Assembly (NCBI GenBank): GCA_037969015.1
Contig: JBBKWO010000057.1
Span: 17,837-81,836, forward strand
From: Opitutaceae bacterium
Lineage (GTDB): Bacteria > Verrucomicrobiota > Verrucomicrobiia > Opitutales > Opitutaceae
Reading direction: 5' to 3'
Length of the DNA stretch: 64,000 nt
The stretch's first letter is position 1. The number at the start of each line of letters is the position of its first letter. Below, in pieces: positions 5,711-43,949 of this stretch. The position numbers and the translations under genes were made by a program. The notes below the pieces were generated by a model that made no database searches, had not been told where the DNA came from, and saw nothing but the letters and a program-made list of their open reading frames with translations.

Positions 5711-7087
5711 ATGAAGACCCATTCTCTTAACACCCGCCAAATCCCAATCGACGACAGTTGGGATATTATTGTTGCCGGAGGTGGTCCCGCCGGCTGCACC
5801 GCCGCCATCGCCGCCGCCCGTGAAGGCGCCCGCACGCTGCTCGTCGAATCCACCGGATCGCTCGGAGGCTCCGGAACCAGCGCACTCGTGCCCGCTTGGT
5901 GTCCGTTTTCCGACAAGGAAAAAATCATTTACCGCGGCCTCGCCGAGACCGTCTTTAACGCCGCCAAAGAAGGTATCGCCCACGTAAAATCCGGCGATCT
6001 CGACTGGGTTCCGATCAACGCCGAAAAGCTTAAACGCGTTTACGACGATCTCCTGACGACAGCCGGCGCCAGCGTCCTGTTTCAAACCACACTGTGCACC
6101 GTTGAAAAATCGGCCGACGATACCGTGTCCACCCTCATCGTGGCCAACAAGGCCGGCCTCTCCGCACTGCGCGCCAAGGTCTATGTCGACTGCACCGGTG
6201 ACGCCGATCTGTCCGCGTGGGCAGGCGCGGAGTTTCAACAAGGCGACGAAAACGGCGAGACCCAAGCGACGACTCACTGCTTCACCCTGGCGAACATCGA
6301 CTCCTACGCCTACGCACACTCCCCCGATCTCGGGTGGTGGGATCCGCTCAGTCCCATTCACAACATCGTCGCATCCGGCCGGTATCCGGAAATCCCCGAC
6401 AAGCACCTTTGCGCGAATCTGGTCGGACCGGGAACGGTCGGCTTTAACGCAGGCCATATCTGGGACGTTGACAACACCGACCCCAGCTCCATCTCCCGAG
6501 CCCTGATGCAGGGCCGTCGCATGGCCGAAGCATACCGCAAAGGCCTCGCGGAGTTTGCCCCGCAAACGTTCGCCAACGCCTTTGTCGTCAGCACCGGAGC
6601 CGTTCTCGGTGTGCGTGAATCCCGACGGGTTACCGGCGACTACGTGCTCACACTCGAAGACTTCCTCGAACGCCGCAGCTTCCCCGATGAGATCTGCCGC
6701 AACAGCTACTTCATCGACCTGCATCAGACCAAAGAGGAACACGCCAAACACTTGACCGAGGTCGATACCGCCACGCGCTTCAAGCAGTATGGCAAAGGCG
6801 AATCACACGGTATTCCCTACCGTTGCCTGACCCCCAAAGGCCTCAAGAACGTGCTCATCGCCGGACGCTCCGTTTCCTGCGAGCGCATTGTGCAAGGCAG
6901 CGTGCGCGTCATGCCCGTTTGTCTCGCCATGGGAGAAGCCGCCGGAGTGGCCGCCGCACTCGCCGCCGCCACTCCCGGACACGATGTGCATGCCGTAGAC
7001 ACCGAGATTCTGCGCATACGATTACAAGCTCACGGAGCCCATCTGCCCCCTGTGAAAGCCGCGGTCAACGAACCGGTGTTTTCTTAA
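5711..7087 (+). CDS. FAD-dependent oxidoreductase (FAD_oxidored / PF12831-like)
   Basis: The N-terminal Rossmann motif is WDIIVAGGGPAGCTAAIAAAREGARTLLVE, and the ORF is 458 aa. Confidence 0.8.
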   Translation: MKTHSLNTRQIPIDDSWDIIVAGGGPAGCTAAIAAAREGARTLLVESTGSLGGSGTSALVPAWCPFSDKEKIIYRGLAETVFNAAKEGIAHVKSGDLDWVPINAEKLKRVYDDLLTTAGASVLFQTTLCTVEKSADDTVSTLIVANKAGLSALRAKVYVDCTGDADLSAWAGAEFQQGDENGETQATTHCFTLANIDSYAYAHSPDLGWWDPLSPIHNIVASGRYPEIPDKHLCANLVGPGTVGFNAGHIWDVDNTDPSSISRALMQGRRMAEAYRKGLAEFAPQTFANAFVVSTGAVLGVRESRRVTGDYVLTLEDFLERRSFPDEICRNSYFIDLHQTKEEHAKHLTEVDTATRFKQYGKGESHGIPYRCLTPKGLKNVLIAGRSVSCERIVQGSVRVMPVCLAMGEAAGVAAALAAATPGHDVHAVDTEILRIRLQAHGAHLPPVKAAVNEPVFS

Positions 7088-8690
7088 ACTCAGCACCAAG
7101 TCCAGCCCGGCTCGCAGGATCATTAAATACATATCCCCTGGCCACTCGTGTGTAGGCCTTCACCTGCGCCTGCTGCCAGGCCACGTCGTGGCCCAGTTCA
7201 CGGGCGACCAACCGGGCCACTTCCGGTGCCGCTTCGATCGAGGCCCGGGCATCCAGCAAGAGCGCCCGGGTCCGCCGTGACAAAACATCCTCCACCGTGC
7301 GCGCCATTTCCTCACGAACCGCCCAGACCACCTCACACTTTTCGTAAGGGAGATCCTTATGCAGACGCACCGCCATGTGCGGGTCGTCGTCGGCCATTTG
7401 CTCTATCTTCGGCGCATCCGCCCCGTAGACCCGCCAATGATCGGCCGCCCCCTGCACCAGCGACCAGCCGTGAATGTGCAACAACTCGGTGTTGCCCTTG
7501 CCCAACTTGCGTTCCACCCCCGCCACCGTCTCCGCCTGATCAATCACATCTTCGGCCATCTTGCGATAGGTCGTCCACTTGCCGCCCGTCACGGTCACCA
7601 AACCACTCTCGCTCACCACAATCGTGTGATCCCGCGACAACGCCGCCGTATCCGCACCGCCATCACCGTCAGCCTTCACCAACGGACGCAGCCCAGCATA
7701 AATACTCAACACATCCTCCGCCGTCGGATCCATCGCCAGATACTTGCGCGCATGCTCCAACACAAAATCGCGCTCCTCATCCAAAGCTCGCGGCTCCATC
7801 GATGCTTTCCCCAACGGTGTGTCCGTCGTGCCCACGATCACCCGGTCGTGCCAAGGCACCGCAAACAACACCCGACCATCCGCAGTCTTTGGTATCATGA
7901 TCGCGGAGTTCCCCGGCAAAAACCGCTTCGGCAACACCAAGTGAATCCCCTGGCTCACCGCAACCATGGGCCGCGCCGACGGATCATCCTGCCTGCGCAC
8001 CTCGTCCACAAATACGCCCGTCGCATTGATGACCGCCCGCGCCCGCACCGTGAACACCTCTCCAGTCTCTTCGTCGCGAGCCTGCACCCCGTGCACCTGA
8101 CCGCCTTCCTTCACCAAGCCGATCACCGCACAGTGATTCAACACCGCCGCGCCCAACTCATCCGCCGTCTGCGCCAGATTGATCGCCAACCGCGCGTCAT
8201 CAAACTGCCCGTCATGATACATCACCCCGCCCAAAAGCCCCGCGGTCTCAATCGTGGGAATGTGGTTGATCGTCTCCTCACGACTCAAACGCCGCGACGG
8301 TGCCAGCCCCAGCTTGCCCGCCATCTGATCATAGACCTTTAAACCCACCCCATAAAACGGCCCGTCCCACCAATGGTAAACCGGAATGACAAACGCCATA
8401 TCGTGCACCAGGTGCGGCGCGTTTCTCGCCAACCGGCCACGCTCGCGCAGCGCCTCCAACACCAGCGAAATATTACCCTGCTTCAGGTATCTCACGCCAC
8501 CATGCACCAGCTTGGTCGACCGACTGGAAGTGCCCTGCGCAAAATCAGACCGCTCCAACAACGCCACCCGATGCCCGCGCGCCGCCGCATCCACCGCCGC
8601 GCCCAGACCCGTCGCCCCGCCGCCGATGATCAAAAAATCAAACGGTTCTGCCGCGTTATGCAGACGCCCCATGGACACCTCGCGTTTCAT
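7065..8690 (-). CDS. glpD: FAD-dependent glycerol-3-phosphate dehydrogenase
   Basis: [53 protein letters not shown] is typical of GlpD. Its ATG overlaps the glpK stop in an ATGA junction at 8687-8690. Confidence 0.9.
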
Positions 8691-10198
8691 GTCCCGTCCT
8701 CCGGTTCGGCCCAGCCCTTGGAACGTTCCAGCGCTCGCTCCCAGCCGCGTCGCAACGCCGCCGCGTCATCCGCCGGTTTTGCCGGACTGAAGGTCTTGTC
8801 CGTATCCCAATGCCTTAAAATCTCATCTCGGTCGGACCAAAAGCCCACCGCCAACCCAGCCAGATAAGCCGCGCCCATCGCCGTGGTTTCAATGTTCTTC
8901 GGCCGCACCACCGGCGTGCCCAGCAGGTCGGCCTGAAACTGTAGCAACGGGGCACTGCGCGAAGCGCCACCATCGACCCGCAGCTCCTTGAGCGTGATGC
9001 CGCTATCCTTTTCCATGCAAGCAATCAGGTCCGCGCTTTGATACGCGATCGCCTCCAACGCCGCGCGGCAAAAATGCGCACGGTTGGTCCCCCGCGTCAT
9101 GCCCACGGCCACACCGCGTGCATACGGATCCCAATGCGGCGCGCCCAACCCGGTGAACGCCGGCACCAAAAACAAACCGCCCGCATCCGGCACCGACGCC
9201 GCCAACGCGTCCAACTCCTTAACCGACTTTACCAACTGCAGCTCATCGCGCAGCCACTGAATCACCGCGCCACCGACAAACACCGACCCCTCCAACGCGT
9301 ATTCAGTTTTCCCCGACACCCTCCACGCGATAGTCGTCAACAAGTTGTTCTTCGAAACCACCGGCTCGGTGCCTGTGTTCATCAGCAGAAAACAACCGGT
9401 GCCATAGGTGTTCTTGGCCATGCCGGCGGCAAAACACGCCTGACCAAACAACGCCGCGTGCTGGTCACCCGCCATGCCGGCGATCGGCACGCCGCCCGGG
9501 AACAGGTTGCGGTCCACCTCGCCATACACCTCAGAGTTAGAACGCACTTCCGGTAGCATCGCCCGCGGCACGCCAAAGAGCTTGAGCAACTCATCGTCCC
9601 ACTCGCCCGTGCGCAAATTGAGCAACAGGGTCCGCGATGCATTCGTCACGTCGGTCGCGTGGACCTTGCCCGCGGTCAACTGCCAGAGCAGCCACGAGTC
9701 CACTGTGCCAAACAACAGTTCACCCGCCTCGGCCCGTGCCCGTGCGCCGGATACGTTGTCCAGAATCCAGCGGATCTTCGTCGCCGAAAAATACGGATCA
9801 AGCCGCAGCCCCGTGCGCTCGGTGACCATCGCCTCCGCGCCATCACGCTTGAGTCGTGCGCAGAAGTCCGCGGTGCGACGGTCCTGCCAGACGATCGCGT
9901 TGTAAACCGGCTTACCCGTTACGCGCTCCCACACGATGGTCGTCTCACGCTGATTGGTGATACCCACCGCCGCGATGGCAGACGTGCCCAGATTGGCCTG
10001 AGCCAGCGCATCGCCGATTGTCGCGCTCTGACTCGACCAGATCGCCATCGGATCATGCTCCACCCAGCCCGGTCGCGGATAAATCTGGGGAAACTCCTTT
10101 TGAGCACTACTCGCCACCGCCCCGTCATGGCCAAACAGCATCGCCCGCGACGACGTCGTGCCCTGATCAAGAGCGAGAATATAGCGGGGTTTGCTCAT
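8687..10198 (-). CDS. glpK: Glycerol kinase
   Basis: [22 protein letters not shown]..., [12 protein letters not shown] and the FGGY-family C-terminus support the call. The start was chosen at rc ATG 10196-10198; the ORF track start at 10219 is 7 codons upstream. Confidence 0.95.
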
Positions 10199-10491
10199 AG
10201 GAAAACGCGGGATTTGCACCGAAGGCGCTCACTCGGCGCCGCTGACTATAACTATCATCATGCCAAGGACAAACAACTTGGCACAAAGCCACCCCCGCCT
10301 CCTGCAGTTTTTTAAACTCCGGACTTGCACTAGACAACTAGTCAACTATCTATCATTTCATAGCCACTTGATCTACGGTAAATAAAATCGTTATACCAGC
10401 TACGGGCCATCGCCCAAACCAGCCATACCCCGCAAAGCCCTGCGTCTTTTTTTAAACCACATACTTTACCATTTAGTTAACTACTCTAATC

Positions 10492-10689
10492 ATGAACGCA
10501 CTCACCTTTATTCCCGTCACCAGCGCCCACCGCCAGGTCAACCGCAGCGCCAAGACCTCGCAAGCCGCCACCAACCAGCAGGCCGCCCGCCTGGCCGGGC
10601 TCATCACCACCAGCCGTCGCCCGGCGCTCTTCTGGGACCCCCACGTGGTCGACCGGCTCACCGCGCCCGTTTCCCGAATCCGTGAATAA
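10492..10689 (+). CDS. Small hypothetical protein (65 aa)
   Basis: It starts with ATG. By hand count, third-codon positions are about 85-90% G/C, matching the coding bias of neighbouring genes. It has no recognisable family and lies 40 nt upstream of trxA. Confidence 0.4.
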   Translation: MNALTFIPVTSAHRQVNRSAKTSQAATNQQAARLAGLITTSRRPALFWDPHVVDRLTAPVSRIRE

Positions 10690-10728
10690 CCGACCGGCTC
10701 CCCGCATCTCCGACCAACACCAATCATC

Positions 10729-11067
10729 ATGAATACGTCCAACAACACACCTGTTCACCTCACCGAGTCCTCGCTTGCCAACGCCATCGCCGCCTCCCAC
10801 GACCGTCCGGTCCTTGTCGACTTCTGGGCTCCGTGGTGCGGCCCCTGCAAAGCGCTCGGCCCCGTCATCGACCAACTCGCCGCCGAATCCGGCGACAAGG
10901 CACTGATCACGAAGCTCGACATCGACGACGCCCCCGAGGCCGCCGCCGCCCACGCCGTCCGGTCCATCCCGACGCTCATCGTCTTCCGCCACGGCAAGGA
11001 AGCCGCCCGCCTCGTCGGACTGCAATCTGCCGGCGCCCTCCGGTCGGCCATAAGCGCCGCCGCCTAA
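10729..11067 (+). CDS. trxA: Thioredoxin
   Basis: The active site is WAPWCGPCK, the length is 112 aa, and a cis-Pro region IPTLIVF is present. Confidence 0.9.
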   Translation: MNTSNNTPVHLTESSLANAIAASHDRPVLVDFWAPWCGPCKALGPVIDQLAAESGDKALITKLDIDDAPEAAAAHAVRSIPTLIVFRHGKEAARLVGLQSAGALRSAISAAA

Positions 11068-11202
11068 AGACCGCGCTGCCAATCAACCAAAACAGCAAAG
11101 GCGCTGGCGGGACGCTCACCACACGCTTTTCCCTCCGCGATCTTTGCGACGCGACTCCGCATTAAAACTCCGACTTCTTTAAAACCAATCACGACCTCCA
11201 TC

Positions 11203-12273
11203 ATGCATCTCCTCCAGCCCGGCCAACTCGGCTCCCTTTCCATTCCCAACCGTGTGCTCTTTGCACCGCTCACCCGCAAACGCGCCTCCCCCGAAAACGT
11301 GCCCGGCGAACTCATGGCTCAATACTACGCCCAACGCGCCTCCGCCGGCCTGCTCATCGCCGAAGCCACCATGGTCGCAGCCGACGCCCAGGCCTGGGAA
11401 CAACAACCCGGCATCCATTCCCAAGCCCAGATCGACGGCTGGCTCAAAGTCACCGACGGCGTGCACGCCGCCGGCGGCCGCATCTACCTGCAAATCTGGC
11501 ACCCCGGCCGCGCCACCCACCCCGCGCTCAACGCCGGCGTGCAACCCGTGTCCTCGTCCAACAAACCCATCCGCGACGGCCACATCCACACGCCGGGAGG
11601 CAACCAACCCTACCCGACCCCGCGCGCTCTGCGCACCGACGAGATTCCCGGCATCATCGAATCCTTCCGCCAAGGCTCCATCAACGCCCAGACCGCCGGC
11701 TTCGACGGCGTGCAAATCCACGGTGCGCACGGCTACCTCGTCGACCAATTCCTGCGCGATAGTGTCAACGATCGCACCGACCAATACGGCGGCTCGCTCG
11801 AAAACCGCGCCCGCCTGCTCTTCGAAATCGTCGACGCCGCTAGCTCCGTTTTTGGTGCCGGTCGCGTGAGCCTGCGCTTTTCACCGATCGTCGGTTTCAA
11901 CGACATGGCCGACAGCGACCCCGTAGCCCTCGTCACCCATGTGGCCAAGGAAAGCGAAAAACGTGGCCTCGGTTTCCTCGAGCTCCGTCATGACAACTAC
12001 GACAGCGCCGCCGAATACGAGCTGGCCCGGATCGCCCGCGCCAACTTCACCGGCGCCCTCGTGCGCAACGGCGGCTTCACCCGCGAAGCCGGCGAGCAGG
12101 CCATCAACGACAACCTCGCCGACGCCATTGCCTACGGCGTGCCCTTCCTCGCCAACCCCGACCTGCCGCGCCGCTTCCTGCTCGACGCCCCGCTCAATGA
12201 AGCCGACATGTCGACCTTCTACGCCGCCGGCTCTCCCAAGGGATACATCGATTATCCGGCTTTGGCAGTTTAA
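11203..12273 (+). CDS. Old Yellow Enzyme family NADH:flavin oxidoreductase (alkene / N-ethylmaleimide reductase-like)
   Basis: OYE motifs are present: NRVLFAPLTR, GFDGVQIHGAHGYLVDQFL and GRVSLRFSP. Confidence 0.9.
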   Translation: MHLLQPGQLGSLSIPNRVLFAPLTRKRASPENVPGELMAQYYAQRASAGLLIAEATMVAADAQAWEQQPGIHSQAQIDGWLKVTDGVHAAGGRIYLQIWHPGRATHPALNAGVQPVSSSNKPIRDGHIHTPGGNQPYPTPRALRTDEIPGIIESFRQGSINAQTAGFDGVQIHGAHGYLVDQFLRDSVNDRTDQYGGSLENRARLLFEIVDAASSVFGAGRVSLRFSPIVGFNDMADSDPVALVTHVAKESEKRGLGFLELRHDNYDSAAEYELARIARANFTGALVRNGGFTREAGEQAINDNLADAIAYGVPFLANPDLPRRFLLDAPLNEADMSTFYAAGSPKGYIDYPALAV

Positions 12274-37899: not shown

Positions 37900-38703
37900 T
37901 TAGCTGTAGAGGATTTCGGTGTTGTAGAAGGCGCGCTCGTTTTCCGGGCGCATGATGCGGCAGTAATCATCGGCGGCGGGCGGGGCGGATTCCCAGAGCT
38001 GCATCCGCACGGGGCGAGGACCGTAGGTCTTGGCGGTATCCATCGGATGGTGACAGGTGGTAAAGACGACGAGCTGATCCATCTCGGCACGCAGATCGAT
38101 GAAGTCACCGGTGCGGGAATGCCCGGAAGCGAAGCCAAGGCGGCCTTCCGCATCGGACTGAAGCTTGCTGAAGAAATTGATGTTGGGCACGAGGTCGCGG
38201 CGGTTGAGGCCGTGTTTGGCGAGCTCGATCAGGAACAGGTCGTGACTGTTGCGATGGTGGGCGTTGCGCGCGGTCTGGTAGTTTTTCTCACTCCACTTTT
38301 GCGCGACGATGGCGGGGGTGTCGTGCCCGCCGATCGGGTCGTGCCAGCCGAGGGTGTCGCCGGTGATCGAAAACATCGCCCGGCCCATGTCGGAGACGAG
38401 GATGTGGCCGGTGGTCAGCTTGGCGGTGTGCTGGCCCTTGAGGGTGTCGGCCATGTTGTAACGATCAATCAGCTCATGGCGGTTGTAGCAGAGGAAGGAG
38501 ACGTTGGAGCCGGACTCGAGCGCGGTGAGCCGTAAGGTGGTGTGGCGGCGGACGTTGAACGACACGGCAACGCCGCCGGGGATGATTTCTTCACGCAGCA
38601 AACTACCCTCCGGGATGAGCGGCATGGGGACGGGTCGCGGGCCGGACGGTCGCTTGGTGGTGAAAGAGGTGCCACTGGGGGCGGGAGGTTTCAACAAAGG
38701 CAT
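37900..38703 (-). CDS. Urea-carboxylase-associated protein 1 (DUF1989 family)
   Basis: It is a paralogue of the downstream gene, with motifs LCYNRHELIDRYNMADT and GDTLGWHDPIGGH. The start is ATG at rc 38701-38703; the track start at 38715 is a TTG. Confidence 0.85.
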   Translation of the reverse strand: MPLLKPPAPSGTSFTTKRPSGPRPVPMPLIPEGSLLREEIIPGGVAVSFNVRRHTTLRLTALESGSNVSFLCYNRHELIDRYNMADTLKGQHTAKLTTGHILVSDMGRAMFSITGDTLGWHDPIGGHDTPAIVAQKWSEKNYQTARNAHHRNSHDLFLIELAKHGLNRRDLVPNINFFSKLQSDAEGRLGFASGHSRTGDFIDLRAEMDQLVVFTTCHHPMDTAKTYGPRPVRMQLWESAPPAADDYCRIMRPENERAFYNTEILYS

Positions 38704-38746
38704 GGCGTTAATCAAAAGTGTTACGAAGTGTCGTTTTTGTAATACC

Positions 38747-38762
38747 GCAAGATCGATGCCAA
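38747..38762 (-). promoter_or_regulatory. Sigma-54 (-24/-12) type promoter upstream of the DUF1989-DUF1989-carboxylase operon
   Basis: The minus strand reads TTGGCATCGATCTTGCG. This is TGGCAT-N5-TTGC with the canonical GG/GC spacing, about 45 nt upstream of the ATG at 38703. Confidence 0.45.
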
Positions 38763-38895
38763 GTCCTATCCATTGATAAAGATATCAACCGACCCAAGCA
38801 CCGGCCTCCCACCTGGGTGTAAAATAAATGCTATTTGCCAGCTGGCGGGGCTTCCGTGCTAAAATGTAGTGAGGCGGCCCTACCACCGTGAAGGC

Positions 38896-41502
38896 ATGAC
38901 AAACAATTACACCTCAAGGAATTCACCGGAACCGTCCGCATACAATTCCAGCGGTGACGGTTGTGTTCACACGCTGTTTTGGCGTCAGGCTTCACAAACC
39001 CCGGACCTGACGGCGGTCCGCTGTGGTGACGTCAGCCTGACCTATCGCGAACTGGCGGACCGAGCCGACCGGCTGGCCGCACGACTGGCTGGAGCAGGAG
39101 CTGGACCCAACCAAATCATCGGACTTTCGGTCAGCCACTCCGTCGACATGGTCGTCGGCGTGTTCGGCATTTTGAAAAGCGGGGCCGCTTATCTGCCGAT
39201 CAATACCGACCATCCGGCCGAGCAGACAATCTACATGCTCGAAAACGCTGGGGCGACCACGTTGGTCACGCAGAGTAAACTAGACGCCACTCCCGCCTTT
39301 GCCGGATTGCGCCGGGTGCTGATCGACCTAACTACCGCCGAAATGGCGACGACCGTAGTATCCGACCCTCAACCGACAGATCTGGCCTACGTCATCTACA
39401 CCTCCGGTTCGACCGGCCGCCCCAAGGCGGTGGCGATCGAACACGGCAGTCTCACCAACGTGGTGGCCTCGATGGCCAGCCTCATGGAAATCAGTGAACC
39501 CGAAGTCGTTGTGTCGATCGGCTCATTCACCTTCGACGTAACCCTGCCCGATTGGCTTTGGGCACTGATGACCGGCGGCACCGTCGTGCTCGCCCCACCG
39601 GAAACGATCCGCACGCCCAAGCTCCTGCAGGCGCTGATCAACGAGGTTAAGCCCACCCATTTCCAAGCCACCCCGGCCATGTGGGAAACCCTGCTCGGCG
39701 CCGGGCTGCAACTCTCGTCCGATGTCCGCGTCGTCACCACCGGCGAACACATCAGCACTCCACTGCGCGAACAACTTCGCGTCCGTTTTCGGCGGGTGTG
39801 GAATCTCTACGGCCCGACCGAGACCACCGTCTGGTCAACCGCCTGCGAGCTGCACGCCGACCGGCAGACCGACTCCATCGGGGTGGCCATTGACCAGACC
39901 ACACTCCACGTTCTCGCCGAAACCACCGCACAACCCATCGCCGACGGTGAACTGGGCGAACTATGGATCGGTGGCGTCGGACTTGCCCGAGAATACCTGA
40001 ACAATGCCAAGCTGACCGCAGAGCGTTTCGTGCTCCTCCCTCAGGCTGGTGGTGAACGGCTCTACCAGACGGGTGACCTCGTCCGCCGTTTGCCGGATGG
40101 CGCTTTGGCGTTTCACGGTCGGCGCGACAATCAGATCAAGTTGCGGGGGTTTCGCATCGAGCTGGGCGAGATCAACGCAGCACTGCTCACCAATCCGTCG
40201 GTGCAGGCCGGCGTCACGGTGCTGCGCGAGGACACCCCGGGGGAAAAGCAAATCGTGGCCTACGTGGTCCCGCGGACCGGCACACCCTGCTCCTCCGCGC
40301 AGTTACGACACGCGCTCCAACAAACCCTTCCCGAGCACATGGTGCCGACGACCGTGGTCCTCATCCCCGCCCTCCCCCTCAACACCAACGGCAAGATCGA
40401 CCGCCGCGCGCTGCCTCCTCCGCGGGAACTCACCGACACCCGGGCCCCCGTCGCTGCGGACGCGCCGGACGGCCCTGATGAAAAAAACGTGACCGCCATC
40501 TGGTGCGAAATGCTCAACGTAAAACATGTCGGCCGGCACGATAGCTTCCTGGATCTCGGCGGGCACTCGCTGCTCGTCATCAAAATGCTCGGCCGGCTCA
40601 AACGCACGCTTGGCTGGGATCTGTCCTACGAGGAATTTCTGCGCACGCCAACCGTGGCCTTGCTCTGCGCCAGCCGCGGCCAAAAACCGCATGTCGGACA
40701 TCTGTTGCCCCTGCGCGCCCAGCCGGACGGGGACGTGCTCGTTTGCCTGCACGGTCACGACTTCAGCAACAGCGCGACCGTCTGGAGCCAACTCATCGGC
40801 ACACTGCCCGCCAATCTGGCGGTCTGGGGTCTTCAAGGACAAGGCTGGGACGGCGGCCCCGTCCACCGTCTGTCACGCAAGGACATCGCCGCTGACTACG
40901 CGCGCCTGATCCGTGACAACTTCCCGGGCCGTCGCATCAATCTGACCGGCTATTGCCTGGGCGGCGTGCTGGCCGTTGATGTGGCCGCGCAGCTGCAGGC
41001 ACACGGAGCCGCCGTGCATCGCCTAGTGTTGATTGAATCGTTCTCAGCGGCAACCCGCCAGGGACAAGTGGCTGTTGAAAAAAAACTGCGCCGCCCCGCC
41101 CAAATCGCCCGCAAAATCCTGAACGCGGACGGCGGATTTTCGGCGGCGTTGGCCGCCCGGAAAATTCGCGGCCAATTGGAGATGATCAGCGCTCGCTCCG
41201 GCCGGCAAACCCGTGGCCTCCTCTCCGCCACGTTCGCCACCCTGGGCCTGCGCGTGCCCCGCGCCTGGCGTGCCGCCTACTACGCCGCGATTCAAGGCGA
41301 TATGCTGCGGGAATCCAGCCAGACCCGCCTCGCCGGACGCATCGACCTGATTCGCAGCTCCGATGGAGAATACAGCCACTCGCCTCACGGCTGGGAGGAA
41401 CATGCCGAACAGGTCACGGTGCATCCCGCCAAAGGGTCCCACCATGGCAAAATGCTCACGGCCGACAACGGCCGCATTCTCGCGGCGATTCTACAGGCAT
41501 GA
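38896..41502 (+). CDS. NRPS-like single-module enzyme with adenylation, PCP and thioesterase domains and no condensation domain
   Basis: A-domain core motifs are present: LTYRELADRA, YVIYTSGSTGRPKAV, NLYGPTETT, YQTGDLVR, GRRDNQIKLRGFRIELGEI and NGKIDR. The PCP motif is FLDLGGHSLLVIKM. The TE has LTGYCLGGVLAVDVA, with Cys in the GxSxG position, and a distal GSHHGKM motif. Confidence 0.88.
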   Translation: MTNNYTSRNSPEPSAYNSSGDGCVHTLFWRQASQTPDLTAVRCGDVSLTYRELADRADRLAARLAGAGAGPNQIIGLSVSHSVDMVVGVFGILKSGAAYLPINTDHPAEQTIYMLENAGATTLVTQSKLDATPAFAGLRRVLIDLTTAEMATTVVSDPQPTDLAYVIYTSGSTGRPKAVAIEHGSLTNVVASMASLMEISEPEVVVSIGSFTFDVTLPDWLWALMTGGTVVLAPPETIRTPKLLQALINEVKPTHFQATPAMWETLLGAGLQLSSDVRVVTTGEHISTPLREQLRVRFRRVWNLYGPTETTVWSTACELHADRQTDSIGVAIDQTTLHVLAETTAQPIADGELGELWIGGVGLAREYLNNAKLTAERFVLLPQAGGERLYQTGDLVRRLPDGALAFHGRRDNQIKLRGFRIELGEINAALLTNPSVQAGVTVLREDTPGEKQIVAYVVPRTGTPCSSAQLRHALQQTLPEHMVPTTVVLIPALPLNTNGKIDRRALPPPRELTDTRAPVAADAPDGPDEKNVTAIWCEMLNVKHVGRHDSFLDLGGHSLLVIKMLGRLKRTLGWDLSYEEFLRTPTVALLCASRGQKPHVGHLLPLRAQPDGDVLVCLHGHDFSNSATVWSQLIGTLPANLAVWGLQGQGWDGGPVHRLSRKDIAADYARLIRDNFPGRRINLTGYCLGGVLAVDVAAQLQAHGAAVHRLVLIESFSAATRQGQVAVEKKLRRPAQIARKILNADGGFSAALAARKIRGQLEMISARSGRQTRGLLSATFATLGLRVPRAWRAAYYAAIQGDMLRESSQTRLAGRIDLIRSSDGEYSHSPHGWEEHAEQVTVHPAKGSHHGKMLTADNGRILAAILQA

Positions 41503-42095
41503 ACCCCGACGTTGCCAAGCCACCGCTAATCGCGCCCGCCGGACTTAACTGGGCGCTGGCAACTCCCCTTCACCACGGCGCCACTCCCTTCATCGCCGGC
41601 CGCGCACTCGCCTCCCGGCTGCTGACGGATGCCGGCGCGCGCACCACAAATGTCGCGCGGGGACCACGCGGCGAACCCGTATGGCCGGATGGATTCACCG
41701 GCAGCATCAGCCATCGCGACGACGACCTGCTGGTGTGCGTCGCCAAAACCAGCGCGCTTATTTCGGTCGGCTGCGACGTCGAGCGCATCTGTCCATGGGA
41801 GCCGGAAGCCGCCGCCATCGCCTTCACCCCCGTAGAGCTGATCTGGTTGAATCAACAACCGACGGCGGAACGTGATCGCCGGGCAACCTTGCTGTTCGGT
41901 CAAAAGGAAGCCGCGCTCAAGTGCCTTTCTCCATTGCTCGGCCGCATCGTCGACTTCCGTCAGCTGTCGGTGAGCGTCGACATCGCGACGCTGCGTTGGA
42001 GTGCCACGTGCGCCCTGTCGGGCGCGAGGCCGGTCGGAGTCAGCATGTTGGACGAAGTGCGCGCCGTCAGTCTGGCGTGGATCACGGCGGGGTAA
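41499..42095 (+). CDS. 4'-phosphopantetheinyl transferase (Sfp/EntD type)
   Basis: GEPVWPDGFTGSISHRDD, VGCDVERI and FGQKEAALKC are PPTase motifs. The gene overlaps the upstream NRPS-like gene in an ATGA junction at 41499-41502. Confidence 0.8.
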   Translation: MNPDVAKPPLIAPAGLNWALATPLHHGATPFIAGRALASRLLTDAGARTTNVARGPRGEPVWPDGFTGSISHRDDDLLVCVAKTSALISVGCDVERICPWEPEAAAIAFTPVELIWLNQQPTAERDRRATLLFGQKEAALKCLSPLLGRIVDFRQLSVSVDIATLRWSATCALSGARPVGVSMLDEVRAVSLAWITAG

Positions 42096-42107
42096 CCCGA
42101 TAGAAAC

Positions 42108-43949
42108 TCAGACCTCGACGAGGTCTTTTTCGACGCGGAGGTTGTCGATGATGAAACCCTGGCGGTCCGGGGTGTTCTTACCCATGAAGAACGAGAGCAG
42201 GTCTTCGCTGCTATGGAGGTTCTTCAAGCTGATGGACTGCAGGCGGATGTTCTCGCCGATGAAGTCTTTGAACTCACCGGGCGAAACCTCACCGAGACCT
42301 TTGAATCGGGTGATTTCGGCGGACTGACCGAGCTTGTGCAGGGCGGCCTGTTTTTCGGCTTCGCTGTAGCAGTAGATGGTCAGCTTCTTGGTGCGCACGC
42401 GGAAGAGCGGCGTCTCCAGGATGTGGATGTGGCCGTTGGTGATGAGCTCGGGGAAAAACTTTAGGAAAAAGGACAACAACAGCAGGCGGATGTGCATGCC
42501 GTCGACGTCGGCGTCGGTGGCGATGATCACGCGGTTGTAGCGGAGCGTGTCGAGGCCGTCCTCGATGTTCAGCGCGCTCTGCAGGAGGTGGAACTCCTCG
42601 TTCTCGTAGATGACCTTCTTGGTGAGGCCGTAGGTGTTGAGCGGTTTGCCCTTGAGGGCGAAGACCGCCTGGGTCTGCACATCGCGGCAGGCAGTCAACG
42701 AACCGGCGGCGGAATCACCCTCGACGATGAAGATGGTGCTTTGTTCGGCGCGCTTGTCCTTGGTGTCGAGGTGCACGCGGCAGTCGCGGAGCTTTTTGTT
42801 GTGCAGGGAGGCTTTTTTAGCGCGGTCGCGGGCGAGGTTGCGGATGCCGGAGAGCTCTTTGCGTTCGCGTTCGCTGGCCTCGATCTTGCGCTTGATCGCG
42901 TCGGCGGCCTCGGGATTGCGATGGAGCCAGTTGTCGAGTTCGCGGGTAAGGAAACCGGTGATGAAGAGGCGGACGGTGGGGCCATTGGGGCCGACCTCGT
43001 TGGAGCCGAGTTTGGTCTTGGTCTGGGACTCGAAAACGGGTTCCTGCACGCGGATGGAGACGGCGGCGACGATAGACTGGCGGATGTCGGCGGCGTCGTA
43101 GTCCTTCTTGAAAAAGTTACGCACGGTGGTGACCAAGCCTTCGCGGAATGCGGCAAGATGGGTGCCGCCCATGGTGGTGTGCTGGCCGTTGACGAAGGAG
43201 TAATATTCCTCGCCGTAGTGGGCGCCGTGGGTGATCGCGACCTCGATGTCCTCGGCCTCGAGGTGGGCCATCGGGTAGAGCGGGTCGCCGGTGAGCTTTT
43301 TCTCCAGGAGGTCCTTGAGCCCGTTCTCGGAGCGGAAGGGCTTGCCGTTGAAATAGAGGGTGAGACCGCGGTTGAGGTAGGCGTAGTTCCAGAGCATCTC
43401 CTCGATGAACTCGGGACGGAACTTAAAGTCTTTGCCGAAGAGCGCTTCGTCGGGAGTGAACTCGATGAGGGTGCCGTTCTTCTCGGTCGAGGAGGCGACC
43501 TTATGGTCTTTGGCGAGTTTGCCCTGGGTGAATTCGACGAATTTCACCTGACCTTCGCGGATGGCCTGGGCGCGGAAGGAAATGGAGAGGGCGTTAACGG
43601 CCTTCTGACCGACGCCGTTCAGACCAACGGATTTCTGGAAGGTTCCAGAGTCGTATTTGGCGCCGGTATTGATGATCGAGACGCAGTCGATGAGCTTGCC
43701 GAGCGGGATGCCGCGGCCGTAGTCGCGGACGGTCATGGTGCGTTCATCGAGATAGATCTCGATCTTCTTGCCGTGCCCCATGGTGTATTCGTCGATACTG
43801 TTATCGACGGTCTCCTTGAGCAGCACGTAGATGCCATCCTCGGCATTATTGCCGTTGCCCAATCGCCCGATATACATGCCGGGACGCAGCCGGATGTGCT
43901 CGAGGGGTGAGAGGGTTTTGATGGAGTCTTCGTTATAGTTGGAGGCCAT
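42108..43949 (-). CDS. parE: Type IIA topoisomerase subunit B (topoisomerase IV ParE-like, 613 aa)
   Basis: [24 protein letters not shown] is followed by GHKL ATPase and TOPRIM ([12 protein letters not shown]) motifs. The size fits ParE rather than long GyrB. Confidence 0.8.

Follow-up and report, generated by a model that had tools for sequence, protein, structure and literature searches.

A two-gene cassette in an Opitutaceae genome encodes a cysteine-thioesterase A-T-TE enzyme and its phosphopantetheinyl transferase, with a candidate Fem-like partner

What can a nonribosomal peptide synthetase (NRPS) module make when it lacks a condensation (C) domain, carries a cysteine at the nucleophile position of its thioesterase (TE) domain and is accompanied only by a phosphopantetheinyl transferase (PPTase)? 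This question is raised by two adjoining genes at positions 38896 to 42095 of a 64,000-nucleotide stretch of an Opitutaceae bacterium genome (contig JBBKWO010000057.1), hereafter the window. In general type the gene pair is a familiar NRPS-like module. Its novelty lies in the rare Opitutales lineage to which it belongs, whose specificity code is unusual and does not vary, and most of whose members have a Fem/MprF-like domain at the usual place of a C domain. We propose, tentatively, that it works together with a Fem-like partner in aminoacyl transfer or dipeptide formation. The features of the two genes are as follows.

38896..41502, + strand: adenylation-carrier-thioesterase (A-T-TE) NRPS-like enzyme of 868 amino acids (Pfam and NCBIfam domain matches; the best PDB sequence matches are NRPS modules)
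38977..40413, + strand: adenylation (A) domain, residues 28-506, with the code DVPQVTLVWK derived from its motifs
40489..40671, + strand: carrier (T) domain (PP-binding, E 1.8e-11)
40699..41499, + strand: type I TE domain with a helical lid of about 90 residues (phmmer alignments, family alignment, AlphaFold and Foldseek)
40954-40956, + strand: codon of Cys687 (elbow alignment)
41035-41037, + strand: codon of Glu714, at the EntF-type acid position (family alignment and AlphaFold model)
41362-41364, + strand: codon of Asp823, at the alternative acid position (family alignment)
41443-41445, + strand: codon of His850, invariant in the family (family alignment)
41499..42095, + strand: Sfp/EntD-type 4'-phosphopantetheinyl transferase of 198 amino acids (4PPT_N and ACPS domains)

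The open reading frame (ORF) at 38896-41502 contains AMP-binding, AMP-binding_C, PP-binding and Thioesterase matches in one polypeptide, and a Pfam scan of the whole 868-residue protein gave no match to the condensation domain PF00668, in agreement with the initial annotation, which had described an A-T-TE enzyme devoid of a C domain. The protein scores 384.7 bits against the amino-acid adenylation model TIGR01733 (cut-off 317.4), and a sequence search of the PDB returned NRPS modules such as LgrA, EntF, SrfA-C and AB3403 as its closest solved relatives. Its A-T-TE core aligns along the whole length with the C-A-T-TE modules EntF and AB3403 (PDB 5JA1 and 4ZXH; query residues 26-725 and 27-715, respectively), with which it shares the type I TE fold and an acid placed as in EntF, past the strand next after the nucleophile elbow. 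It differs from these modules in having no C domain, a Cys in place of the Ser of EntF, a much longer lid and a stand-alone organization with its own PPTase. The phosphopantetheine attachment residue of the carrier domain is Ser558, within LGGHS (codon 40567-40569).

In pairwise phmmer/HMMER alignments the G-Y-C687-L-G-G elbow falls column for column on the nucleophile Ser of the EntF (GYSLGG), skyllamycin and NocB TEs, so that the replacement of Ser by Cys at this position, already pointed out from the sequence, is borne out. The accompanying claim that TEs of the Cys type are rare did not hold: among the TE domains of the best 150 representative matches, 65 carry Cys and 130 carry Ser at the elbow. 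An AlphaFold model of the TE, built from a six-sequence family alignment (mean predicted local distance difference test, pLDDT, of 80), predicts a type I core and three long lid helices, and its best PDB fold matches by Foldseek are the skyllamycin, NocB, Pks13, EntF, fatty-acid synthase and AB3403 TEs. Glu714 lies directly after model strand 108-112, the strand following the elbow helix, and is replaced by Asp in five other aligned members, while Asp823 precedes His850 by 27 residues and has no counterpart in one relative (P0059). As a separate observation, two TEs follow one another in many of the nearest TE relatives (P0124-P0268), a Cys elbow (GxCxGG) in the first being paired with a Ser elbow (GHSFGG) in the second; we found no literature on this recurrent tandem.

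The chromosomal context was assessed by tblastn and blastn synteny against two genomes of the same genus (G001 and G002), and defines the unit in which the two genes are carried:

38763..42105, + strand: inserted two-gene cassette of 3.34 kb, missing at this place in the two same-genus genomes
38763..38895, + strand: cassette-borne upstream region (G+C content 0.53), the presumed promoter of the cassette itself, with an extended -10-like TGCTAAAAT at 38857-38865

Both congeners show parE, then a spacer of 370-460 bp, then DUF1989a, DUF1989b and the carboxylase gene. Homology of the window to these genomes breaks off at about 38762 and restarts at about 42106, at the parE stop codon, and the interval holds exactly two genes and 133 bp of upstream DNA. 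The segment 38763-42105 is thus a clean, precise insertion in which the two genes form a self-contained unit, and this synteny upholds the earlier view of the pair as a minimal two-gene cluster. The G+C content of the insert is 0.634, as compared with 0.597 for the genome, and both this value and the third-codon-position value are inside the host range. A scan of the cassette ends for direct or inverted repeats, hallmarks of mobility, revealed none that were convincing, and no orthologue of the synthetase was found in 40 related genomes, the two of the same genus included.

The second gene of the cassette overlaps the first by ATGA at 41499-41502 (read CAG GCA TGA / ATG AAC), and its product matches PF17837 (E 7e-13) and PF01648 (E 3e-11), both above cut-off, with the motifs GCDVE and QKEAALK visible in the translation; the Sfp-type PPTase with an ATG overlapping the synthetase stop had been recognized from the start. 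Its scores against the named equivalogs EntD, AcpT, PptT and Npt are far under the cut-offs, which places it in the superfamily but in none of these four orthologous groups. It is the only two-domain (Sfp-type) PPTase of the genome, in which the only other ACPS-family gene is a 137-residue ORF of AcpS size and no second NRPS was found. Considering that the genome otherwise holds only this AcpS-sized gene and no NRPS, it is understandable that the cassette carries a PPTase of its own, and it makes a clear example of a biosynthetic unit that brings its PPTase into a genome without one.

Regarding the substrate, the ten specificity positions mapped from the core motifs, with a spacing within 1-2 residues of GrsA, read DVPQVTLVWK. 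Asp214 (codon 39535-39537) and Lys500 (codon 40393-40395) are both present in the A domain, and F213-D214, in the sequence FDVTLPDW, and K500 are unchanged throughout the family alignment. The retention of these two residues, together with the TIGR01733 score above cut-off, argues for an alpha-amino acid as the substrate, as had been reasoned earlier from the Asp of FDVTLPDW. The fungal and Ralstonia A-T-TE quinone and furanone synthetases (atromentin, polyporic acid and ralfuranone types) have the same three domains without a C domain and a TE that forms a bond (PMC9047271), but they activate aryl alpha-keto acids with A domains that lack the alpha-amine-binding Asp, whereas here Asp214 is kept, TIGR01733 is above cut-off and the closest relatives are bacterial NRPS modules.

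The code DVPQVTLVWK is identical in all 8 family members, including the A-T didomain protein P0106, and its invariance across proteins that are 36-48% identical points to one defined substrate. The pocket has no charged residue and, in particular, no anionic residue at code positions 3, 4, 8 and 9, where all the diamino-acid-activating A domains compared have one in at least one of the four; the code of SulA3, which activates diaminopropionate (Dap), is DVWEMNADD (PMC12042044). The nearest recognizable pattern is the glycine-type DILQLGM[IV]WK, seen in domain 2 of P0009 and in P0281, an A-T-TE enzyme from another Opitutaceae genus. The code is also unlike the threonine code. Judged from these residues, the pocket could accommodate glycine or another small neutral amino acid, an assignment in which our confidence is low. 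The gene of P0106 (locus L013, 5373-8503), a protein 48% identical and without a TE, lies directly downstream of a cytochrome P450 gene, among sulfatase genes, which suggests that in its organism the same amino acid is oxidized while tethered to the carrier.

To define the family, protein searches covered 5.8 billion proteins and 1.84 billion representatives. With the TE domain alone, an exhaustive search of the representatives gave only the query itself and P0004 at E <1e-30, and 30 proteins at E <1e-10. P0004 is a metagenomic protein of 864 amino acids, 47% identical and with the same three-domain architecture, whose gene is flanked by those of a GT4 glycosyltransferase and an MFS exporter (MFS_3). 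The next relatives are long forms of 1,180-1,260 amino acids (P0059, P0066, P0077, P0083, P0105 and a Puniceicoccaceae locus), in which the A-T-TE part is 36-38% identical, the GYC[IL]GG elbow is kept and an extra domain of about 370 residues stands at the N-terminus. Their genes are single genes among housekeeping genes, several of them adjoining recQ. When one genome per species was scanned with TE-specific peptide patterns, by which divergent members may be missed, two loci were found, in a Cephaloticoccus metagenome-assembled genome (MAG) and in a Puniceicoccaceae MAG. A profile search of an order-level sample gave strong TE-family matches in 2 out of 401 genomes, namely the present one and the Puniceicoccaceae MAG. 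The A-T-TE enzyme therefore belongs to a very rare family confined to the Opitutales.

Other assignments of these proteins were discarded. The relatives of about 1,240 residues are not BpsA-like enzymes with an oxidase domain within an A-T-TE frame, for their extra residues are N-terminal and GNAT-like and not an inserted oxidase; nor does the window protein resemble the indigoidine synthetases BpsA and IndC, A-Ox-T-TE enzymes with a Gln code, as it has 868 residues, a contiguous AMP-binding_C and no oxidase domain inserted in the A domain. Models of the PEP-CTERM/exosortase suite of ligase, acyl carrier protein, hydrolase and FemAB proteins gave only sub-threshold scores (TIGR03098, 220 of 592 bits; TIGR03019, 22 of 260 bits; TIGR03101, E 0.004). 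In P0083 the last 50 or so residues depart from those of its close relatives just before the catalytic His, which suggests that the metagenomic record is frameshifted or misassembled there. A further Opitutaceae A-T-TE enzyme (locus L040, G242:C1, 7805-11465) has 941 amino acids, the elbow GYCMGG and the code DILQLGMIWK; its gene is convergent with that of its own 260-residue Sfp-type PPTase and adjoins genes for a VPDSG-CTERM protein and a PIG-L deacetylase.

Given the N-terminal domain of the long forms, the present genome (G000) was searched with it by tblastn, and one free-standing protein was found:

Contig C43, 32502-33635, - strand: P0271, free Fem-like protein of 377 amino acids

The initial annotation had stated that no other biosynthetic genes are adjacent to the pair; this is true of the neighbours, but a candidate partner is thus encoded on another contig. 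The P0271 family and the N-domains of the long forms are related with an hhalign probability of 99.3% (E 1.3e-20 over 308 columns). A search of 5.8 billion proteins gave no more than nine homologues of P0271; their sources are Opitutaceae or other Verrucomicrobia, and recQ adjoins the genes of several, as with the long forms. The AlphaFold model of P0271 (pLDDT 86.6) finds the aminoacyl-tRNA-dependent peptide synthases Sba18 and Sbb17 as its best PDB folds in Foldseek, followed by FemX, A-PGS/L-PGS/MprF (alanyl- and lysyl-phosphatidylglycerol synthases), FemA and the arginyl-transferase ATE1; the top 30 matches are almost all Sba18/Sbb17, FemX, A-PGS/L-PGS/MprF and FemA, with a probability of 1.0 and E values down to 4.5e-11. 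The protein also has a weak PF13480 match. On the strength of the model, P0271 is predicted to have the double-GNAT aminoacyl-transferase fold, closest to FemX, PacB, Orf11(Sbb17) and MprF, with no sequence-level similarity to the solved members. A Y-K-[AS]-K-[WF] motif is conserved in the partner protein, which we presume to resemble the lysine-containing motif of Fem enzymes and regard as a lead.

The distribution of the Fem-like domain supports a link with the synthetase. It occurs in 4 of 401 genomes of the order, which the genome handles suggest to be the same sample as that used for the TE family, and these four include both genomes in which the TE family was found. One of the two has the fusion and the present genome has separate genes; by our arithmetic, on very small numbers, the unfused case would coincide by chance with one of the three genomes that have a free Fem-like gene at a probability of about 3/400. 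In each of four genomes checked, the domain is present in exactly one copy, fused or free. The P0271 gene is absent from 24 relatives, and around it the TGT and histidine-kinase neighbours are conserved in congeners while the segment with the CxxC, Fem-like and DUF218 genes is not, so the gene lies in a variable region and is not a clean single-gene insertion.

Taken together, we favour a system that depends on a carrier protein and, with a Fem-like partner, transfers an aminoacyl group or makes a dipeptide, although we hold this somewhat short of an even chance; as part of this explanation, the two genes constitute a self-sufficient, laterally inserted carrier-protein aminoacylation module. 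The PPTase would convert Ser558 to its holo form, the A domain would adenylate a small neutral alpha-amino acid that fits its glycine-like pocket and load it on the T domain, and the aminoacyl group would then move to Cys687, where it would remain a reactive thioester. Release would involve an amine or hydroxyl nucleophile instead of water and would take place jointly with the Fem-like transferase. Two routes may be envisaged. In the first, the Fem-like protein would take the aminoacyl group from the carrier or the Cys and give it to an acceptor, in a tRNA-independent version of FemX/MprF chemistry. In the second, it would stand in the position of the C domain and add a second amino acid, borne by aminoacyl-tRNA, to the tethered one, as PacB does, after which the TE would set the dipeptide free. 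Either a small aminoacyl conjugate or a dipeptide, linear or cyclic, would be expected as the product, and not a beta-lactone or beta-lactam; the fusion of other members to a Fem/MprF-type transferase domain makes the former outcomes likelier than a beta-lactone.

Some precedents bear on this scheme. SyrC and CmaE are Cys alpha/beta-hydrolase shuttles that pass an aminoacyl group from a carrier thioester onwards without hydrolysis; they are free-standing and act between two carriers. The analogy with the present TE would lie in a Cys nucleophile within a TE-like fold, and the difference in that no second carrier is linked to the cassette. None of the described double-GNAT aminoacyl transferases is known to be fused to an A-T-TE enzyme, and no description of a Fem/MprF-like domain in such a fusion was found in the searchable literature, which is not proof of absence. 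Double-GNAT Fem-like transferases do act in several natural-product pathways, as exemplified by PacB in the pacidamycin NRPS pathway (PMC12945691).

It is possible, if on balance rather doubtful, that these proteins represent an undescribed Fem-NRPS hybrid, in which a double-GNAT transferase replaces the C domain in a Fem-A-T-TE(Cys) enzyme and of which the present genome would have the two parts separately, as a mobile cassette and as a Fem-like gene that acts in trans. In such a hybrid, either an aminoacyl carrier would replace aminoacyl-tRNA as the donor, or a tRNA-borne and a carrier-borne amino acid would be joined in a minimal dipeptide synthetase. If the Fem-like link is real, the family would join the aminoacyl-tRNA-dependent Fem/MprF route and the carrier-dependent NRPS route, treated so far as separate, and would offer a compact system that activates itself, consists of two or three genes and is directly testable in E. 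coli.

Another member of the same rare transferase family is encoded beside a gene of a different kind:

Genome G082 (locus L039, G082:C20), 8555-11298, - strand: gene for a 391-residue Fem-like protein (Acetyltransf_6) together with an ATP-grasp gene

There the Fem-like gene overlaps by 4 nt the stop of the upstream gene, which encodes a 523-residue ATP-grasp ligase, and the two are translationally coupled. ATP-grasp ligases are another class of amino-acid-activating enzymes, and from its sequence this pair may be a different two-gene amino-acid ligation system.

Several observations weigh against a functional link between the cassette and the Fem-like protein. The Fem-like gene is unlinked to the cassette and lies on another contig, and the co-occurrence statistic is based on very few genomes. 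The short contig with P0004, between the GT4 and MFS exporter genes, carries no Fem-like gene, and IMCC26134 has a close free Fem-like homologue but only a different NRPS, with a Ser TE. Regarding the fold, the template modelling (TM) scores of the P0271 matches are modest (0.41/0.53), and when the PDB was searched with a sequence profile of the Fem-like family, only noise was returned and no solved member was matched.

The strongest competitor, which we consider a real but minor possibility, is that the A-T-TE enzyme acts alone and that the Fem-like gene is unrelated. The Cys would hold one unit while the T domain is reloaded, and the TE would then couple two identical units into a diketopiperazine or linear dipeptide, or pass a single unit to a small nucleophile. 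Iterative TEs such as that of EntF and the dimerizing fungal A-T-TE enzymes are established precedents, and the present TE has that of EntF among its best matches in both sequence and fold. That P0004 has the same three domains without the N-domain, that the cassette moves as two genes only and that in IMCC26134 the Fem-like protein occurs in the absence of this A-T-TE family are all consistent with independent action. On the other hand, the Fem-like domain is part of the same polypeptide in five database members and at the Puniceicoccaceae locus, and the free Fem-like gene and the cassette, each of them rare, occur together in this genome.

Less probable, and in our view unlikely, is that the TE serves as an acyltransferase that aminoacylates a glycan, glycolipid or envelope polymer, with an outcome like that of Dlt and a TE logic like that of Pks13 or FrsA. 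The best NCBIfam match of the TE alone is the Pks13 TE region (E 2.9e-9), the Pks13 TE is among the top folds, and the P0004 gene lies between a glycosyltransferase and an exporter; intermolecular transesterification by a TE is documented for FR900359 (PMC7794379). However, there are no glycan genes near the window cassette or the long-form genes, and the likeness to Pks13 is a generic similarity of type I TEs.

The initial annotation had drawn an analogy with ObiF and SulM, whose Cys-TEs perform strained-ring release, and this proposal did not hold: we regard a beta-lactone or beta-lactam synthetase as highly improbable. The present TE shares the GxCxG elbow with ObiF/ObiF1 and SulM and would preserve their acyl-enzyme thioester character, and the spacing of 27 residues between Asp823 and His850 fits the alternative acid position of RifR and ObiF. 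In ObiF the EntF acid position is occupied by Gly and the acid is an Asp on the next strand, at a RifR-like position (PMC6668435); here, by contrast, the EntF position is filled in every member, by Glu714 or by Asp, and Asp823 is not conserved in P0059. Neither ObiF nor SulM is close in sequence or fold ranking, ObiF1 being absent from the best 50 PDB fold matches of the TE model, and the upstream C domain of ObiF, required for N-acylation of the substrate, has no equivalent; loading of a beta-hydroxy amino acid as in ObiF is likewise not indicated by the code, from which the substrate was judged. The SulM Cys-TE is distinguished by a Gln-Cys-Asn motif and a positively charged pocket, together with an A domain specific for Dap (PMC11298585, PMC12042044); the present TE reads Tyr-Cys-Leu instead, and the A pocket has none of the anionic residues of Dap-activating domains. 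Finally, Cys is frequent in related TEs, which corrects a genome-mining heuristic: in uncharacterised small NRPS modules a TE Cys is common and does not by itself predict a beta-lactone or beta-lactam.

That the two genes are left over from a larger NRPS and are now silent or decaying, without a present function, as an orphan gene with no tailoring or export genes beside it might suggest, is scarcely credible: the core motifs, carrier Ser, Cys, His and acid residues and PPTase motifs have all been preserved, the two genes are coupled in translation, P0004 retains the architecture at 47% identity, and the code is invariant across relatives 36-48% identical.

The flanks of the cassette belong to the host chromosome:

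38745..38762, - strand: sigma-54-type -24/-12 element TTGGCATCGATCTTGCGG of the carboxylase operon, outside the cassette and abutting the left insertion boundary
42108..43949, - strand: parE-like topoisomerase subunit gene, housekeeping, outside the cassette (Pfam)
Locus L028 (G001:C225), about 6790-7250, and locus L029 (G002:C7), about 7920-8285: parE-DUF1989 spacers of the congeners

The intergenic spacer on the left is 192 bp long if DUF1989a starts at the conserved ATG at 38703, in agreement with the 190-bp divergent promoter region that had been assigned jointly to the synthetase and the nitrogen-assimilation operon. The shared regulation implied by that assignment did not stand: the TTGGCATCGATCTTGCGG element is kept in G001 and G002, both without the cassette, and since the carboxylase operon thus keeps its own conserved sigma-54-type promoter, the shared divergent arrangement is an accident of insertion. 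Only 38704-38762 (59 bp) is native to this operon and the remainder came with the cassette, as 38763-38895 shares no homology with what lies between parE and DUF1989a in the congeners. Within the latter region, TGCTAAAAT is read at 38857-38865 as had been described and is a putative extended -10-like element; a consensus sigma-70 scan of the cassette upstream region gave no -35/-10 pair.

On the right, the parE-like gene is 93% identical in the same-genus genomes, and each genome checked has exactly two GyrB-family genes; this conservation discards the neighbouring GyrB-like gene as a self-resistance determinant. The PPTase and parE stop codons are convergent and 12 nt apart. The one hairpin in the interval 42096-42126 lies at 42110-42126, inside the coding end of parE, so both the PPTase gene and parE are without an obvious intrinsic terminator. 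Long perfect palindromes, such as AAAGTGTAACTCATTAAGTGACACTT ... AAGTGTCACTTAATGAGTTACACTTT, and a GC-rich hairpin terminator of parE are present in the spacers of the congeners; the window, where the cassette has taken the place of the spacer, has neither. Since the cassette begins 1 bp upstream of TTGGCATCGATCTTGCGG, any upstream activator sites of the carboxylase operon are displaced here. Upstream of DUF1989a, at 38721-38762 on the - strand, an inverted repeat GTTACGAA-N..-TTCGTAA is followed by TTGGCATCGATCTTGCGG, and this arrangement is conserved in both congeners.

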